A program made the position numbers and the translations under genes. From Vulcanimicrobiales bacterium (GTDB taxonomy: Bacteria; Vulcanimicrobiota; Vulcanimicrobiia; Vulcanimicrobiales; Vulcanimicrobiaceae): a DNA stretch of 64,000 nt. The stretch is taken from assembly GCA_038231455.1 (NCBI GenBank), contig JBBRLI010000007.1, positions 64,001 to 128,000 of the forward strand, read 5' to 3'. Every line of letters begins with the position of its first letter. The first letter of the stretch is position 1. This document shows, in pieces, positions 48,727 through 56,406 of the stretch. The notes beneath the pieces were generated by a model. It ran no database searches. It saw only the letters and a program-made list of their open reading frames with translations, and was not told where the DNA came from.

Positions 48727-49506
48727 ATGCTCCAGTTCCGCCGACTCGCCGGCGCGGCCGCCGCCGCTCTCTTGATGTGCGCGCCGCTTGTCGCACGGGC
48801 CGATGATGGGCTCACCTCCAGCGGCTCGATCGTGATCCAAGCCGTGCTCTCCGGTCAGAAAATCAACGTTGGAAGCCCGATTGCGCTGTTGCGTTCGGGC
48901 TCGAGTTATCGTTTGGACGTCACGCAACTCGCGCCGGTCGGCGTCGACCCGACTGTGGCCGCGTTCCTTGCAGGCGCCCTACCGATTCATTCGTTCACGT
49001 TCATGTATGACGGAGCGACCGGCACCACGAGCGCGTACTCGAACGACAACCACACGTACTATCAGGAAACAAAGAAAGCATCCGGCACGACCGCTACCCC
49101 CGCACCCGCCGCACCGACAAACGGCGGCGATCCGCTCTCGCTCATCGCAATGTACGGCCGCATGCTGCGCGATGACAAAACGTTTTCGGCGACGCTGGAT
49201 CTTGCCGGGCACGGCACGACCAACGGCCATCCCGCAACGAACGTGAACTTCGAATTCAAACAGCAGAAAACGGCCGGTGCGTTACAAGACTACCGCGCGC
49301 ATCTCGCTCTCGCCGACGATCTCGACGGCTTTCCCATACAAATCGCGCTCGATTCGGTCGGCGTAAAATCGTCCGACTTCGCCGGTGCCTTGCGTCTGGA
49401 TCTGACCAACGTGCAGCGTGCGGCTCCGCCGAGCGGTTCGTTTGCGATTCCAAGCGGATTCACGCGCGTGACGAGCCTCCAAGAAATTCTTCGTCCCGCT
49501 CACTAA
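48727..49506 (+). CDS. Exported hypothetical protein
   Basis: Signal peptide ARA-DD; beta-rich; C-terminal FAIPSGFTRV motif. Confidence 0.7.
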   Translation: MLQFRRLAGAAAAALLMCAPLVARADDGLTSSGSIVIQAVLSGQKINVGSPIALLRSGSSYRLDVTQLAPVGVDPTVAAFLAGALPIHSFTFMYDGATGTTSAYSNDNHTYYQETKKASGTTATPAPAAPTNGGDPLSLIAMYGRMLRDDKTFSATLDLAGHGTTNGHPATNVNFEFKQQKTAGALQDYRAHLALADDLDGFPIQIALDSVGVKSSDFAGALRLDLTNVQRAAPPSGSFAIPSGFTRVTSLQEILRPAH

Positions 49507-50747
49507 CGGCACGGGTCGGGTACGCCTTGTAAGGCCGCGATACGCGTGCCGTACGATGGGCGCGCGCCAAAATATATCCGTGCGGAACGCGGGAAACACA
49601 ACTGCCGCGCACCGTCATCGACGATCCGCACGAGCGCTCGTATGCCGCCGGCGCGATCGTGCGTCAGCGCGAGCGCGGCAATGTCGGCGCGCGTCGTCAC
49701 CTCACGCGAATATGCATTATAGACCGGATAGAGCGCAAGACAGAACACACCAAGAAACGCGGCGACAAGCGAGAGCCGGACGAGCGGATCGTCGTCGCGT
49801 CGGAATCCGATGCGGTCGCTTGCAAGAACCGCGAGTGCCGCCGCAACGGCAAGCAAAAACGTGCCGATGCACGTGCGCCGAAACGAATCCGCGGCCTCCG
49901 AGAGACTCTCGGCGATCAAATAGGCGATTTCATCGTCGCTCGCAACGGAGAGCAGCGAATCGGGCAACAGCACGCGCGTCGTCGGACCGAGGCCCTCGAC
50001 GGCCGGTTCGTCGATCGTACGGCGCTGCGCGCTTGCCGTAACGACGATCGGTGTCGTGGTTTTCATCGTGGCTTCGATCGCGACGATACGCGCCCGAAGC
50101 GTGCGCGTTTGCAGCGCGCGTTCCGGTCCGAAAAACGGATCGAGGACGACTGGCCGCATCGCAGCGCCGAGCGATGCGAGGACAAAGAGACCGAAAAAGA
50201 CCGCGACATACCACAGATGCGTTCGATCGACGAGTGCGAGCACGATCGCGACGAGCAATCCGACAACGATCATTCCGACGATCGTTCCGACGGAAAAATC
50301 GATCAGCCACGAGCCGATGTGCTGCTCCGTCAGGCCGACGTTGAACAGCAGACGATAGGACGCAAATGAAAACGGTAGCCCCGCAAGCGCTCCCGTCAGC
50401 GCCAACAGTGCGCCGAAGAACAAGCGCTGGAGCGCAAGCATTCGCGTTCGGCGGCGCAGCCAATTGCGAATCCGCGCGGCATTCCCCGAACGCCACAGCC
50501 ACGCAAAAGCAAGCACTTGCGCGATCGCCCATGCGAAAAAGAGCGGCCGCCGGATCCCGGTAATCGCGCGCGCTGCATGCTGACGGTTCACGTTCACAAG
50601 ATGCACGACGCTCTGCGTGAGCAGCGTACGGTCGCTCATCGCCGAGACGTGGTGGTCGATCGCAACCGGCGTCGCCGCAAGCGTAGGAGCCGCTCCGAAC
50701 AAGAGAAGAAAAAGCACCGTTAGCCAGGCGCAGGTGCGCCCGACCAA
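49503..50747 (-). CDS. M48 (Ste24-like) membrane peptidase homologue lacking HExxH
   Basis: Ste24-like TM layout, GLGPTTRVLLPDSLL...EIAYLIAESLSE, YSREVTTRAD, RPSYGTRI; start uncertain. Confidence 0.7.
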   Translation of the reverse strand: MVGRTCAWLTVLFLLLFGAAPTLAATPVAIDHHVSAMSDRTLLTQSVVHLVNVNRQHAARAITGIRRPLFFAWAIAQVLAFAWLWRSGNAARIRNWLRRRTRMLALQRLFFGALLALTGALAGLPFSFASYRLLFNVGLTEQHIGSWLIDFSVGTIVGMIVVGLLVAIVLALVDRTHLWYVAVFFGLFVLASLGAAMRPVVLDPFFGPERALQTRTLRARIVAIEATMKTTTPIVVTASAQRRTIDEPAVEGLGPTTRVLLPDSLLSVASDDEIAYLIAESLSEAADSFRRTCIGTFLLAVAAALAVLASDRIGFRRDDDPLVRLSLVAAFLGVFCLALYPVYNAYSREVTTRADIAALALTHDRAGGIRALVRIVDDGARQLCFPRSARIYFGARPSYGTRIAALQGVPDPCR

Positions 50748-50763
50748 CCGTGCTTTTGTGGAC

Positions 50764-51267
50764 CTAACCGAGTTTACGCAGTTCGTCGAAAATCTGCTCT
50801 TCGTCGGGTTGCTCAGCGATGTCGTGGACATCGATGTAGCGGATGATACCTTGTTTGTCGATGATGAAGATCGCCCGTTCCGACATGCCTTCGGCACGCA
50901 GGACGCCGTATTTCTTTGCGACTTCGCCATGCGGCCAGAAATCGCTCAGTAACGGATAGGTGATCTCTCCGAGGGTTTTCGCCCACGCGCGATTCGCGTG
51001 CTGGCTGTCGATCGAGATGCCCACAACTTGGGCATCATAGCCTTCGAAACGTTCGAGGTTCTCCTCGTACGAAGGCATTTGGCTGGCTCAAACGGCGGTA
51101 AATGCGAACGGGTAAAACGCGAGGACGACGTTTTTGCCTTTGAGGCTCGAGAGCTTCCACTTGTCTTGCGAGTTGTGGCTGCCAAGCTCGATCTCCGGCG
51201 CAACGTCACCGATCTTGAGCGTTGACGTCGAATTTGAAGTCGACGCGCGCCCTTTGGTGATGGCCAT
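50764..51267 (-). CDS. Peroxiredoxin (AhpE/BCP-like), predicted selenoprotein (U60)
   Basis: AGGAG RBS; LKIGDVAPEIEL...VVLAFYPFAFTAV-TGA(51090-51088)-ASQM...VVGISID...YPLLSDFWPHG...ERAIFIID continues in frame. Confidence 0.88.
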
Positions 51268-51386
51268 TCTAGTGAGATTCTCCTGGGTTCGGTCAGAGTG
51301 GGAATATCCCGACTCGCCTCATTGTTCGCAAATCCCCAGAGATGATGCTGGGAATCGCGTATGCGGCGGTCGGAATGCTTTTGGTG

Positions 51387-52055
51387 TTACGCGATCGTTC
51401 GAATCGAACCGGGTTCGATCGGATCGAGGACGGCGTTGAGCGCGGCGAGGAGTGTTTTGCGCTGCTCGGTCACATCGTTTGGCCCGCCCATCGGCGTCCC
51501 GATGCTGTGGTGGATCGGGTGAACGGCGCGCGGCGGACGCGCCGACGCCGTTTGCGCCGGTTCGACGGTGATGAGGATCGTCGGAATTCCGGCGGCTTCG
51601 ATGGCTCGTTGGACATGCACGACCGTGCGATGACAGAGCGGTCAACCGCCGGTCAAGAGGACGAGATCCGTCGCGCTTCGTTCGATCTTCTTGGCGATTT
51701 CGGGACCGGTTTCGTCGAGCACTTGTTTCATCTTGAGCGTGTAGCCCATCATGCCGAAGAACTCGGTGTTCAGCCCTTTGATCGTCCCGTCGGCGACGAG
51801 TTCGCGCAGACGTTCGATCGGGAAGACCACATTGATATCCCGATCCGCTGCCGTGTGATCGTAGTGCGTGTGGGTTACCATCAGGTCGGCGACGCTTGTA
51901 TCAGATGGAATGACGCGATACGAGCCGTCACCGTCCACGTTATACGGTTCTTGCGTCTTGAGATGCACACCGGCCGTCGACACGAGAGCGATCGTCGTGT
52001 CGCTCAGGTCGCGTTCAAACGGCGTATAGGGGATGGCGCGGCGGGCGAGTTCCAT
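51387..52055 (-). CDS. PrdB/GrdB-family reductase selenoprotein (U138, UxxC)
   Basis: IALVSTAGVH...HTHYD..DRDINVVFPIERLREL...DLVLLTGG-TGA(51644-51642)-PLCHRTVVHVQRAIEAAGIPT...PPRA continues in frame. Confidence 0.88.
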
Positions 52056-52059
52056 ACGG

Positions 52060-52680
52060 CTACATCGGACCCGGCGAAGGCGAGGAGCGTTGCAGCTCGG
52101 ACGGAGTTGGTTCCGACGCGGGCTGCATTGCAGGTTCCGCGCCTGCGAGGTTTCCGACAGCGGCGCTCGGAACGGCTTTCCAAACCGCCTCGGCCGTCGG
52201 CGGCAGTTTATCCATCCGCTTGACAAACGCGGCGATCTGCCAGCGCTGCGTGTCGTCGAGCGTTTTTGAGAATGCGGGCATCGCAGTGAAGCGGATGCCG
52301 TGCGTCACCTTGAAGTACGTCACGTTTTCCGGATCGTCAACAACGCTGCCGTCTTTCGTCGCGAGCATCGGCGATTCGACCGCGAAGCCTTGCGCGAGCA
52401 GCGACGGTTTGCCGTTTTCTGCGCCGTGACAGACGGCGCAATTTGCGCCGTAGAGTTTGACACCCGCGACGAGATCCGCATCCGTCGGTTTGAGCGGGCT
52501 CGCGAGCCCGGCGGCATCGCGATTGATCGACTTGTGCAGGCTTCGCACCGCAAGATTTTTTTCGAGGGCACCCGGCGGCACGTCGGCGCGCGCCGGAACG
52601 TAACCGTTTGAAGCGGCATAGTAGCCGCCGGCGACAAGCGCGATGATCGCAACGAAGAAGCCGAAGAAGAAATTACGCAT
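52060..52680 (-). CDS. Membrane-anchored monoheme cytochrome c
   Basis: N-terminal TM, CAVCH heme motif, GIRFTAMPAF axial Met. Confidence 0.88.
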   Translation of the reverse strand: MRNFFFGFFVAIIALVAGGYYAASNGYVPARADVPPGALEKNLAVRSLHKSINRDAAGLASPLKPTDADLVAGVKLYGANCAVCHGAENGKPSLLAQGFAVESPMLATKDGSVVDDPENVTYFKVTHGIRFTAMPAFSKTLDDTQRWQIAAFVKRMDKLPPTAEAVWKAVPSAAVGNLAGAEPAMQPASEPTPSELQRSSPSPGPM

Positions 52681-53526
52681 TTACGATGTTGCCGCCGTTT
52701 GGTGATCTGCAATGATTTCGGTACTCGAGCGTTCCGGGCCGTTTTCGTCGATCGTCGCGCGCCGTTTTGCAGCGATGGGATTTGCAACGAGGATGTAGCG
52801 CGGGCATTCGGGACCGTTGGGTTCATTACAGTACCCGCGAACGCAACTCGCACCCGCGCGAATAAACAACGTCGGAGCCGCTTTTTTCGCAAGTCGCAAC
52901 ATCGCAAAGCCGAGTTCGCGAATCTCCCACTGCGCGTTATTGCACGTGCGCAGCGTGAAGAAGTCCAGCAGCGCGCGAGCATTTGCCGTAATGACGATCT
53001 GCGTCTCGGCTGCGTTCGGAAGCGCAAACCGGGCGTCTTCCGGCGGCGTCCCCGCCGCGAGCGCTTCCTGGTAAAAATCGGCGATCTGCGCCATGAGCAC
53101 GTCGTACTTCGCCTTGATTTCCGGCCGCGCCGCAATCGAGGGGGGCGTGATGAAATCGAACTGGCCTTTGACCTTAATGTAACGCTGGCTCTTCTGCTCG
53201 TACGACATGTGCCGGTGCCGGACCAGTTGGTGGGTGAGTGCCCGCGAGACACCGGCGACGCCGAAGGTGAACATCGTATGCTCGAACGTCGAGAGATGGC
53301 CCGCGTCCCGAACGCGTGAGACCATTTTTTTGACTTCGTCGTCGGTCCAGTTCTCGTCGATCGATTCGATATCGCGCGGGCTATAGCAGTTTCGAGCTGC
53401 CGTCGCGACGGCTTTTTCGGGTTCGGGGCTATGCGAGAGCAGGACGACTTTGAGCGCCAAGCGATCCTCCGGCCGGACTTTGAGAAGCGAAGTGGATTCG
53501 CCCGGCGACGGCCCATTCTTCTTCAT
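52681..53526 (-). CDS. thyX: FAD-dependent thymidylate synthase
   Basis: GHLSTFEH, SRALTHQLVRHRHMSYEQKSQRY, EDARFALP, AQWEIR. Confidence 0.95.
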   Translation of the reverse strand: MKKNGPSPGESTSLLKVRPEDRLALKVVLLSHSPEPEKAVATAARNCYSPRDIESIDENWTDDEVKKMVSRVRDAGHLSTFEHTMFTFGVAGVSRALTHQLVRHRHMSYEQKSQRYIKVKGQFDFITPPSIAARPEIKAKYDVLMAQIADFYQEALAAGTPPEDARFALPNAAETQIVITANARALLDFFTLRTCNNAQWEIRELGFAMLRLAKKAAPTLFIRAGASCVRGYCNEPNGPECPRYILVANPIAAKRRATIDENGPERSSTEIIADHQTAATS

Positions 53527-53640
53527 GGAGCCGCGGCGCGGAAAGCGTAATCTTTACGGCCCGCCCCTAGCACCCTAGTGTGCCTTTGGTTACAATTTTG
53601 AAAGAAACGGGGCGGTCTGCCCGGTTTTTTTGGGGGATTC

Positions 53641-54981
53641 ATGGTACGCCGTACTAGCGCGCTGGTGTTTCTTTTTCTCCTCGCCGGATGTTCCGGCGGG
53701 GGCGGCGGCGCTGCGTCAACATATGTACCCGCGCCGGTCGCGCCTCCAATTGCGCCCCCGCGCACGCTCCAGTCGACGTTCAAACACGTCATCATGATCG
53801 TTCAAGAAAACCGCTCGGTCGACAACCTCTTTAATGGCTTCCCGGGCGCGGATACCGTCCCGTACGGCATCAACCACACGGGCGCCAAAGTCCCGCTCGT
53901 GCCGATCGGGCTTGGCGCCGGCGGCGATGTCGACCACAGCCATCGCGGTTGGCTCCGACAGTACAACAAAGGCAAGATGAACGGCTTCGATGCGACGACG
54001 AGCGGCACGTTCTTCCCGAACGTCCCCGAACATCCGGCCCCCGCGTATGGCATGGTTCCCCGAAGCGAATCGGCGCCGTACTGGGACATGGCCTCGCAAT
54101 ACACGTTTTCCGATCGATTCTTCCAAAGCAACAGTGGACCGAGCTTCCCCGCGCATTTGTATTTGATCGCCGGCGGATCGAAACTGGTCGCCGAAAACCC
54201 GACCGACTCCAAATGGAACTGCAATTCGACTGCAGGCGCAACGGCCGACGTGTTGGACTCGGTGAATACCGAGCTGTATACCGGCGCGACCAAACCGTGT
54301 AGCGAGGCGCAAACGCTCGGTGACGAACTCGATACCGCCAATCTTTCCTGGCGTTATTACGCGCCGACCAGCGATGCGACGTCCACCGGCGGAATCTGGT
54401 CGGCTTATGCCAGTATTCCGCACATTCGCTTCGGCGCCGATTGGGCGAGGAACGTCATCACCCCGGAAACGACCGTTCTCGACGATATCGCTGCAAAACG
54501 TCTCCCGACCGTCAGTTGGGTCGTGCCGAATTTTTCGAACAGCGATCATGCGGGCTTCGGCAGTTCGACCGGACCCGATTGGGTCGCAGCGGTCGTCAAC
54601 GCCGTTGGGACGAGCGCGTACTGGCAAGATACGGCGATCTTCGTCACCTGGGATGACTGGGGCGGCTGGTACGATCACGTGGCCCCGCCGCAGCTCGACT
54701 CGATGGGACTTGGCTTCCGCGTACCGATGATTGCGATCTCCGCCTATTCGCGCGCCCAATACGTCTCGCACACGCAGTACGAATTCGGAAGCCTCCTACG
54801 CTTTATTGAGGAAGACTTCCATCTGCCGACGCTCAGTAGTTCCGATGCGCGCGCCGCGACGCCGATCGAGCTCTTCAATTTCGCTGCGCCGGCGCGCGCT
54901 TTCGTCCCGATTGCAACGACGCATTCCGCGCAGTACTTCCGGCGCGAACAGGCCCGCGTAAATCGCGCGCCCGACGACTAA
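53641..54981 (+). CDS. Phosphoesterase / phospholipase C-family lipoprotein (copy 1)
   Basis: Lipobox LAGC; QENRSVDNLF, GPSFPAH, SDH, TWDDWGGWYDHV, GFRVP. Confidence 0.9.
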   Translation: MVRRTSALVFLFLLAGCSGGGGGAASTYVPAPVAPPIAPPRTLQSTFKHVIMIVQENRSVDNLFNGFPGADTVPYGINHTGAKVPLVPIGLGAGGDVDHSHRGWLRQYNKGKMNGFDATTSGTFFPNVPEHPAPAYGMVPRSESAPYWDMASQYTFSDRFFQSNSGPSFPAHLYLIAGGSKLVAENPTDSKWNCNSTAGATADVLDSVNTELYTGATKPCSEAQTLGDELDTANLSWRYYAPTSDATSTGGIWSAYASIPHIRFGADWARNVITPETTVLDDIAAKRLPTVSWVVPNFSNSDHAGFGSSTGPDWVAAVVNAVGTSAYWQDTAIFVTWDDWGGWYDHVAPPQLDSMGLGFRVPMIAISAYSRAQYVSHTQYEFGSLLRFIEEDFHLPTLSSSDARAATPIELFNFAAPARAFVPIATTHSAQYFRREQARVNRAPDD

Positions 54982-55065: not shown

Positions 55066-56406
55066 ATGAAACGGACGGGACGGTTTATCTTTCTCCTCAC
55101 CGCAACGACGGCGGTGATGTCCGCCTGTGGCGGTGGCGGCGGCTCGACTTCGCCGATGTCGCTGCCCAGTGTGATGCCGAGCACACCGGCGCGTCCACCC
55201 GTATCAGCAAGCTCCGTTATCAAACATGTCGTTATCATCGTGCAAGAAAATCGTTCGTTCGATAACCTCTTCAACGGATTTCCGGGAGCCGATACGGCGC
55301 AAGGCGGCACGACGTCGACCGGCGCGTACATTCCGCTCGCGACGGTCGGCCTCGAAGACGGCGCCGATCCCAATCATCGCCGGTCGGATTTCGTTAATTC
55401 GTTTGATGGCGGCAAGATGGACGGCTTCGATAAAGTCGGCGTCTTCGGACCGTCGCGACCCTCCACGTACGTCTACGCAAAAGTGCCGCAAAGCGAAGTT
55501 CAACCGTATTGGGATTACGCGAAGAATTACGGTATCGCGGACCGGATGTTCCAATCATCGACGAGCGCGAGTTTCACGCAACATCAATATCTGATTGCCG
55601 GCCAATCCGCTGGGTTGACCGATGTTCCCTCGGCATTGCCTTGGGGATGCGACGCACCGGCCGGCACGACGACCGTCACCATCAACCCCGACGGATCGCT
55701 CGGCACCGGACCCTTTCCGTGCTTCTCGTATAAGACGATCGCCGACTCCCTCGATGCCAAAGGCATCTCCTGGGGCTATTATGCACCGGCGGTTAGCAGC
55801 GGCGATGTCGCCGGAAATATCTGGAGTGCGTTCGATGCGATTTCACCGGTGCGCTTCGGCGCCGACTGGACGCGCAACATCCATTCACCCGAAACGAACG
55901 TCCTGGGCGATATCACCGGCGGAACGTTGCCGAGCGTTTCGATCGTCATACCGGATTCCGCGAATTCGGATCACGCGCGCTTTAGCGCCGTAAACGGCCC
56001 GGCTTGGGTAAGTTCGATCGTGAGTGCGGTCGGCAATTCGAAATACTGGAACGATACGGCGATCTTCGTAACGTGGGACGACTGGGGCGGCTGGTACGAT
56101 CACGTTCCGCCGATTGCGATCGATGCGGAGGGACCGGGAATGCGCGTCCCGCTTCTGGCGATCTCGCCGTATGCAAAACACGGCTATATCTCGCACACGA
56201 TTTACGAAACGGCCAGCCTCACGCGCTTCGTTGAAGATGTCTTCGGCCTGGGAAATATGGGCCAGCGCGATGCAACCGCGCACAGTCCTGTCGATATGTT
56301 CGACTTCACGCAGACGGTGAAGCCGCTCGCTGCGGTTCGCACGACGAAGTCTATTCGCGACTTCCAGATGCAGCGTCCCTCCGGACTCGCACCCGACACG
56401 GACTAA
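55066..56406 (+). CDS. Phosphoesterase / phospholipase C-family lipoprotein (copy 2)
   Basis: Lipobox MSAC; QENRSFDNLF, SASFTQH, SDH, TWDDWGGWYDHV, GMRVP. Confidence 0.9.
   Translation: MKRTGRFIFLLTATTAVMSACGGGGGSTSPMSLPSVMPSTPARPPVSASSVIKHVVIIVQENRSFDNLFNGFPGADTAQGGTTSTGAYIPLATVGLEDGADPNHRRSDFVNSFDGGKMDGFDKVGVFGPSRPSTYVYAKVPQSEVQPYWDYAKNYGIADRMFQSSTSASFTQHQYLIAGQSAGLTDVPSALPWGCDAPAGTTTVTINPDGSLGTGPFPCFSYKTIADSLDAKGISWGYYAPAVSSGDVAGNIWSAFDAISPVRFGADWTRNIHSPETNVLGDITGGTLPSVSIVIPDSANSDHARFSAVNGPAWVSSIVSAVGNSKYWNDTAIFVTWDDWGGWYDHVPPIAIDAEGPGMRVPLLAISPYAKHGYISHTIYETASLTRFVEDVFGLGNMGQRDATAHSPVDMFDFTQTVKPLAAVRTTKSIRDFQMQRPSGLAPDTD

Follow-up and report, generated by a model that had tools for sequence, protein, structure and literature searches.

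Within the window that we analysed, a 64,000-nucleotide stretch (contig C7:64001-128000) of a 3.71-Mb Vulcanimicrobiales assembly that is 93.7% complete, two neighbouring genes encode a selenoprotein resembling PrdB and a selenocysteine (Sec)-containing peroxiredoxin (Prx) that we classify, from its sequence, as an AhpE-type 1-Sec enzyme. The original prediction had placed these two genes in a selenium redox module of five, together with thyX, a cytochrome c gene, and a gene for a degenerate M48 peptidase. In our best reading, the functional unit is the two-gene selenoprotein pair, and the five-gene module is not supported. The pair is probably a peroxide-removing enzyme with its own reductant; a peroxide or thiol redox role, which had been proposed at the outset, is graded as the most likely one. 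More specifically, we put at roughly 50% the probability that the PrdB-like protein would be the dedicated reductant of the 1-Sec/1-Cys Prx, comparable to AhpD or AhpF for AhpC. The two core genes and their redox-active codons are located as follows:

51387-52055, minus strand: PrdB-like selenoprotein gene, core of the pair (222 aa, U138; PF07355 E 6e-11)
50764-51267, minus strand: AhpE-type Prx selenoprotein gene, core of the pair (167 aa, U60; PF00578 E 1e-34)
51642-51644, minus strand: in-frame TGA for Sec138 of the PrdB-like protein (translation with TGA=U)
51088-51090, minus strand: in-frame TGA for Sec60, the peroxidatic position of the Prx (translation with TGA=U)

The two genes are 119 nt apart and, as had been noted before, are consecutive and each carry the TGA at a redox-active position. 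Their association was followed in a scan of relatives with one genome per species, in which the best 80 of at least 534 PrdB-like loci were analysed. Assigned by their record titles, these 80 loci span Vulcanimicrobiota/Eremiobacterota, Ktedonobacteria, Acidobacteriota, Bacillales, and Methylomirabilota, representing at least five phyla. An AhpE-like Prx, 46-96% identical to that of the window, is encoded no more than 5 kb from its PrdB-like counterpart in 70 of the 80 loci, which bears out the predicted pairing of the two. The distance is at most 350 nt in 57 loci, where the Prx gene lies upstream on the same strand in 36, downstream on the same strand in 11, and convergent in 10, giving 47 co-directional and 10 convergent arrangements. 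The proximity of the pair is kept though the gene order varies. When all 2369 flanking open reading frames (ORFs) of the 80 loci were clustered, no third family common across phyla emerged; neither a transporter, a catabolic gene, nor a regulator is conserved near the pair, and no dedicated reductase gene is linked to it. The third-largest flanking cluster appears, judged from the coordinates of one example, to consist of antisense shadow ORFs of the PrdB-like gene.

Among 41 relatives, a close PrdB-like orthologue with one TGA was found in each of 8 genomes, which belong to two families of one order, and in all 8 the Prx gene directly follows it. Twelve of the 41 have a Prx orthologue, and these include all 8 with the PrdB-like orthologue. 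Four loci from metagenome-assembled genomes (MAGs; L056, L058, L059, and L063) are titled Rhodospirillales, Armatimonadota, or Dormiibacterota, yet are 67-75% identical to and syntenic with Vulcanimicrobiota loci; their titles are probably mislabelled.

Both TGAs are genuine Sec codons. Position 138 of the PrdB-like protein is encoded by TGA in 40 of the 80 related loci and is Cys in the other 40; of the 69 loci usable for position 60 of the Prx, 22 have TGA and 47 have Cys. In both genes, the reading frame is kept on both sides of the TGA. With the PrdB-like residue given first and the Prx residue second, Vulcanimicrobiota, Bacillales, and most Acidobacteriota are U/U, 30 loci of Ktedonobacteria are C/C and another 17 are U/C, and a single locus is C/U. 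All four components of the Sec machinery that the original prediction had named are present in the genome: selA and selB lie side by side; selD (G000:C7:149899-150819), about 22 kb past the window end on the same contig, itself holds one in-frame TGA and encodes a Sec-containing selenophosphate synthetase; and the tRNA-Sec scores 71.6 bits, where the gathering score is 47. The PrdB and Prx families are both already catalogued as selenoproteins. Gene callers truncate both genes at the UGA, and the database contains many fragments of 137 aa.

The Prx motif P-F-A-F-T-A-V-U60 fits the AhpE-subfamily motif PxAF(T/S)xxC (PMC5302317), with Sec in place of Cys. In a search for relatives of solved structure, the top six rows were all Mycobacterium tuberculosis AhpE (Rv2238c/MT2298; E 4e-28 to 1e-27), and the seventh was an unnamed 'AhpC/TSA family protein' (E 5.6e-27). 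The match to Rv2238c covers residues 15-161 at E 4e-28; both proteins display P-x-A-F-T-x-x-C/U and SDFWPHG, and neither has a resolving Cys. In contrast to Rv2238c, the window Prx uses Sec as its peroxidatic residue and is encoded next to a PrdB-like gene. Recycling of AhpE is attributed to mycoredoxin-1/mycothiol. Apart from U60, the 167 residues of the window Prx include no Cys, and the aligned region of Cys-type homologues contains a single Cys. Lacking a second Cys, the Prx would need an external thiol or selenol partner to resolve its oxidized form and could not recycle itself.

Assignment to PrxU was rejected, since the window Prx reaches 74.1 bits with model NF040737, under the cut-off of 270. 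The PrxU of Eubacterium acidaminophilum likewise has Sec at the peroxidatic position; it is, however, longer, with the window match spanning positions 28-173 of the 233-position model, whereas the window Prx is AhpE-like. In one relative (L043/L058, G023:C188, at about 4002-4501 in L043), the Prx orthologue is split into two overlapping frames (residues 1-70 and 53-167), a frameshift that is either an assembly error or a sign of a pseudogene.

PrdB is the 26-kDa selenoprotein subunit of the clostridial D-proline reductase (Kabisch et al. 1999, cited in PMC13188914). The window protein belongs to the same fold family, PF07355 or GRDB (42.6 bits against a gathering score of 22, over the C-terminal part of the model, positions 214-345 of 347). 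It shares 41-47% identity with true PrdB over residues 10-218 and 28-30% with GrdB, and it has Sec at the same position in U-x-x-C-H-R. Its best NCBIfam match is TIGR04483, the PrdB equivalog, with 196.8 bits, under the curated cut-off of 300; true PrdB genes adjoining prdA score 323-428 bits and GrdB-type genes 85-106. The redox motif, G-G-U-P-L-C-H-R, is of the UxxC kind, formed by U138 and C141. Its core U-P-L-C-H-R corresponds to U-G-T-C-H-R in true PrdB and U-G-T-C-T-R-C in GrdB, and where the window protein reads UPLCH and MMGYT, clostridial PrdB reads UGTCH and FMGGGG. Across 87 sequences, C141 and H142 never vary, and position 138 is Sec or Cys except in two database rows with W, where a TGA may have been read as Trp. 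Maximum-likelihood analysis of 53 rows, two of them (L050 and L052) from genomes marked unpublished, placed Prx-linked proteins and true PrdB on opposite sides of a branch with moderate support (78/88, 70/74) and an unresolved backbone, and GrdB far off (100/100).

The PrdB-like protein, with its 222 residues, is a single Rossmann-like domain with no DNA-binding or signalling domain. In an AlphaFold2 model calculated from the 87 sequences (predicted local distance difference test score 94.9), U138 caps the N-terminus of helix 139-154 and follows immediately on strand 131-135, a predicted position typical of redox-active CxxC pairs. A sequence-profile search of the PDB with the family found no real relative, its sole row being a designed repeat protein (E 8e-4); Foldseek with the model gave no match at E <= 0.001, and VIA-align returned generic Rossmann-like/periplasmic-binding-like rows only (Z <= 9.0) and no specific fold relative. 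Two more PrdB-family Sec genes are present in the genome, at G000:C14:68629-69276 (minus strand) and G000:C6:32539-33120 (plus strand), forming loci L048 and L049. They contain one in-frame TGA each, their products are 36% and 33% identical to the window protein, and neither adjoins a Prx gene. Upstream of the C14 paralogue are two small ORFs of 99 and 80 aa that belong to no family; G020, whose genome is marked unpublished, encodes a relative with a comparable small ORF in front of it. The C6 paralogue has RND efflux genes upstream and EamA and MFS transporter genes downstream.

The pyruvoyl proprotein PrdA/GrdE, represented by PF09338, had no match in the 93.7%-complete genome and none in five other carriers of the pair, namely Ktedonobacter racemifer, Neobacillus drentensis, Ammoniphilus resinae, a Pyrinomonadaceae MAG, and Dictyobacter kobayashii. 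The search itself works, because in a positive control on a sample of the phylum of Neobacillus (Bacillota), 53 of 151 genomes scored above the cut-off. The earlier description of the PrdB-like gene as an orphan is supported, with no PrdA or GrdE in any of the six pair genomes. Unlike clostridial prdB, the window gene is linked to a Prx gene and not to prdA/prdC, with no PrdA in the genome. The family annotated as "D-proline reductase PrdB" or "glycine/sarcosine/betaine reductase selenoprotein B family" also occurs more widely in bacteria without the pyruvoyl subunit, for example in Ktedonobacter and Bacillales, and as such carriers have no pyruvoyl subunit, the annotated PrdB function is probably wrong there. 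The Ktedonobacter and Bacillales carriers are aerobes.

For the reaction proposed for the pair, we infer direct electron transfer between the two proteins, as well as its direction, the peroxide substrate, and the upstream donor. Sec60 of the Prx would reduce a hydroperoxide and be converted to a selenenic acid. Sec138 of the PrdB-like protein would then attack the oxidized Sec60, and Cys141 would resolve the resulting mixed Se-Se or Se-S bond, with the PrdB-like protein leaving as an internal selenenylsulfide that the general cellular thiol system would re-reduce. Such an arrangement resembles AhpC with AhpD/AhpF, Prx with a SelW-like protein, and Prx-like with AhpD-like proteins, in that a Prx gene lies beside a small partner gene of the CxxC/CxxU type and the partner depends on the Prx; the same one-way dependence is known for AhpC with AhpF or AhpD. 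In contrast to these systems, the partner in the window has the Rossmann-like fold of the PrdB/GrdB family and is not a thioredoxin, an AhpD, or a flavoprotein. What appears to be new in the pair, then, is a putative Prx redox partner with a PrdB-family fold. The selenoprotein operons listed in a 2026 review (PMC13188914) are grdA-grdB, prdB-prdC, frhA-frhD-hdrA, Prx + SelW-like, Prx-like + AhpD-like, SAO, and Tso, and a Prx + PrdB-like pair is absent from this list in section 9 of the review. The literature searched, with supplementary tables outside its scope, contained no description of a PrdB-like/peroxiredoxin pair.

In favour of the PrdB-like protein as reductant we counted the linkage of the two genes and its survival of changes in gene order, the lack of a third common family, the nesting of the PrdB-like distribution within that of the Prx, the single redox residue of the Prx, the invariant C141 and H142 with the placement of U138, and the absence of PrdA/GrdE. 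Several observations weigh against the PrdB-like protein being a dedicated reductant of the Prx. Ten of the 80 PrdB-like loci have no Prx gene within 5 kb, although, in favour of the reductant, a Prx is encoded elsewhere in 4 of 5 such genomes. Conversely, the Prx orthologue occurs without a close PrdB-like gene in 4 of the 12 relatives that have it (G008, G011, G014, and G018), so the Prx can work without the PrdB-like protein. No Prx-PrdB-like fusion was found, the only longer match being a 394-aa protein with PF07355 alone, which is weak evidence. The loci are also inter-related, 56 being from Ktedonobacteria/Chloroflexota and 11 from Vulcanimicrobiota, and their counts are not independent. 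Finally, many polar residues outside the redox motif are conserved and common to true PrdB (D43, Y65-D66, D73-N75, R84, and R176); these seem to exceed the need of a simple disulfide carrier and could form a small-molecule site. Judging from the distribution of the two genes, the PrdB-like protein goes with the Prx, and the Prx can do without the PrdB-like protein.

The conserved polar residues bear on the best surviving alternative, in which the PrdB-like protein would be a stand-alone small-molecule reductase acting through Sec138/Cys141, as true PrdB does in C-N cleavage, and the Prx would be a protective companion or a redox partner operating in the opposite direction. This would agree with the near full-length identity of 41-47% to true PrdB, with the U-x-x-C-H-R motif and the many polar residues held in common, and with TIGR04483 as the best family match at 196.8 bits. 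We nevertheless regard it as unlikely, given the absence of PF09338 from six of six pair genomes with a working control, a score below the PrdB cut-off (true PrdB, 323-428), and the split from true PrdB in the tree, although the latter has moderate support only. Moreover, no transporter or catabolic gene is conserved nearby, and the carriers include the aerobic Ktedonobacter and Bacillales.

A peroxide relay or sensor, in analogy to relays of the Orp1-Yap1 type, would use the same two proteins differently: the Prx would be the receptor and would pass oxidizing equivalents to the PrdB-like protein, the oxidized form of which would have a regulatory or protective role. The linkage evidence applies to such a relay in the same way, and the existence of Prx without PrdB-like, but not the reverse, fits a downstream target as well as a reductant. 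As the PrdB-like protein is a single Rossmann-like domain with no DNA-binding or signalling domain and no regulator is conserved nearby, we consider a relay distinctly improbable.

The five genes at 49503-53526, all on the minus strand and in the same direction, had been proposed to act together, for instance in removing peroxide formed by the reduced flavin of ThyX. The three genes surrounding the pair are the following:

52681-53526, minus strand: thyX, flavin-dependent thymidylate synthase (281 aa; PF02511 E 7e-66; TIGR02170 182.1 bits)
52060-52680, minus strand: membrane-anchored mono-haem cytochrome c (206 aa; PF13442 E 1.3e-12; a PF00034 match too)
49503-50744, minus strand: M48-like membrane protein (PF01435 E 4e-10; PF16491 E 6e-9)

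The co-orientation and the tight spacing were exactly as first described: the thyX stop and the cytochrome c ATG are 0 nt apart, and the TAG stop of the cytochrome c gene is followed by CCGT, a 4-nt gap, and then by the ATG of the PrdB-like gene. In favour of a five-gene module, the sister genome G001 shows the genes in identical order, and several genera of the family have thyX adjoining the Prx locus, also where the PrdB-like gene is missing. However, thyX is present beside the pair in only 6 of the 80 loci, a cytochrome c homologue in 2, and M48 in 9 (with the window protein as query) or 10 (with a sister-family query); all of these neighbours fall within the 11 loci of the window's order, with none in the 69 loci outside it. 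Conservation of linkage in relatives thus held for the PrdB-like and Prx genes, across phyla, and failed for thyX, cytochrome c, and M48, and we consider a common module of all five very improbable. Even less can be said for adjacency without functional meaning, in which two unrelated redox selenoprotein genes merely travel together: although 56 and 11 of the 80 loci come from two lineages and shared ancestry inflates the counts, proximity survives changes of order and strand in at least five phyla, and no other flanking family is common.

The individual properties of the three neighbours also speak against a module. ThyX scores 182.1 bits with TIGR02170, against a cut-off of 87.9, and thyA is absent from the genome, with a control that matched 10 of 14 genomes; as the only thymidylate synthase detected, thyX is a housekeeping gene. 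It lies within a conserved neighbourhood, glmU ... pth-ctc-prs, and in the sister family a GGDEF protein occupies its position. We conclude that thyX is a family-level syntenic neighbour and not part of the pair. In two genera of the same family, represented by G011 (L149, C28) and G014 (L150, C4), thyX is followed directly by the Sec-containing Prx gene with no PrdB-like gene between them, an arrangement implying either loss of the PrdB-like gene from a thyX-Prx neighbourhood or its insertion there. The Prx gene of G014 is followed, in the M48 position, by a long ORF that is a candidate M48 only.

The cytochrome c has an N-terminal hydrophobic helix and the haem motif CAVCH (CxxCH), scoring 48.3 bits with PF13442 against a threshold of 27. 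Its haem domain would lie outside the membrane, and it is a genus-level neighbour outside the conserved pair. The M48-like protein is degenerate, as had been noted: HExxH is replaced by ESLSE, and the Glu expected downstream as the third ligand is Thr in the window and Ala in the sister genome. The active site has decayed to differing degrees across the family (L053-L063), from HEMGH/HEIGH in the sister family and HELAH in L059, where the motif is intact, through REFGH in L055, L056, and L058 and HEIAQ in L057, to ESLSE in the window. The membrane protein is retained despite loss of the motif and looks like a pseudo-protease in the making.

Should the PrdB-like protein recycle the AhpE-type Prx, a new fold would join the short list of Prx reductants, a testable answer would be available to how 1-Cys AhpE-like enzymes are reduced outside Actinobacteria, and the "PrdB" counts in selenoproteome surveys would change their meaning. 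As to such counts, 43 'Prx (TxxU)' and 42 'PrdB (UxxC)' selenoprotein genes were reported for the Sargasso Sea (Zhang & Gladyshev 2005, PMC1088965) and 253 'Prx' and 235 'PrdB' genes for the Global Ocean Sampling data (Zhang & Gladyshev 2008, PMC2398784), which ranks both families with the most numerous selenoproteins in samples from the oxic ocean (PMC1088965, PMC2398784). We counted these near-equal numbers in favour of the pair. The catalogued 'PrdB' UxxC family is probably of the same stand-alone PF07355 UxxC kind as the window protein, judged from how it is described; the family descriptions in these surveys refer to proline-reductase function and do not mention a Prx partner (PMC1088965, PMC2398784). 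More tentatively, stand-alone PrdB-family proteins in general may be widespread, unrecognised Prx reductants, the physiological recyclers of AhpE-type 1-Cys/1-Sec Prx in bacteria without mycothiol, which we see as possible rather than probable. If true, this would explain why a 'proline reductase PrdB' is among the commonest selenoproteins of oxic ocean and soil metagenomes, in numbers near those of Sec-containing Prx, and would point to a simple selenol/thiol redox carrier as the ancestor, or a relative of common origin, of the B subunits of the anaerobic Stickland reductases.

RNA structures were examined for Sec insertion sequence (SECIS) elements and other signals, with the following candidates at the locus:

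51614-51632, minus strand: candidate SECIS hairpin of the PrdB-like gene (starts 10 nt past the UGA; within the minimum-free-energy fold)
51040-51076, minus strand: candidate SECIS structure of the Prx gene (fold z-score -2.58)
50719-50748, minus strand: terminator-like hairpin, 13 pairs and a T-run (pattern match only)

In the Prx candidate, an outer stem, GCCUUCG/CGAAGGC, encloses an inner hairpin, CGAGG-AGAA-CCUCG; equally good folds arose in 5 of 200 shuffles, and among 21 Sec-type genes 3 of 5 pairs of the outer stem are preserved by double-sided changes. The PrdB-like candidate has the stem CAU(C)GCAC / GUGCAUG and the apical loop GGUC. A hairpin is found at the same place in related Sec-form PrdB-like genes, with lineage-specific 3' arms; no alignment-wide consensus was obtained, RNAalifold giving only a 3-pair stem, and within Ktedonobacteria the folding energies of Sec and Cys forms do not differ (means -10.1 versus -10.4 kcal/mol, p 0.75). 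This hairpin is likely to be the SECIS element of the PrdB-like gene. An Rfam scan of 49000-54000 found no SECIS family and only two chance-level rows (E 0.29 and 0.87).

The hairpin at 50719-50748 sits directly 3' of the Prx stop and runs into the M48-like frame, covering its likely TTG start codon. On the basis of a pattern match only, it could act as a terminator or attenuator that separates the pair from the M48-like gene. The terminator-pattern search returned 12 sites, against 5.6 +/- 2.4 in shuffles. A sigma-70 promoter scan gave no sites.

Two tandem genes of a phosphoesterase family, each of 446 aa, lie divergent from thyX at 53641-54981 and 55066-56406 on the plus strand. The first, which is the one that was Pfam-scanned, matches PF04185 (E 7e-55) and is of the acid phosphatase/phospholipase C type; both products have lipoprotein-like N-termini (…LAGCSGGGGG and …MSACGGGGG). 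On the other side of the locus, convergent with the M48-like gene, 48727-49506 (plus strand) encodes a protein of 259 aa whose N-terminus resembles a signal peptide and which matches neither Pfam nor NCBIfam. Homologues of this protein are found at the same place in several relatives, with 84% identity in G001 and 34-42% in the others.

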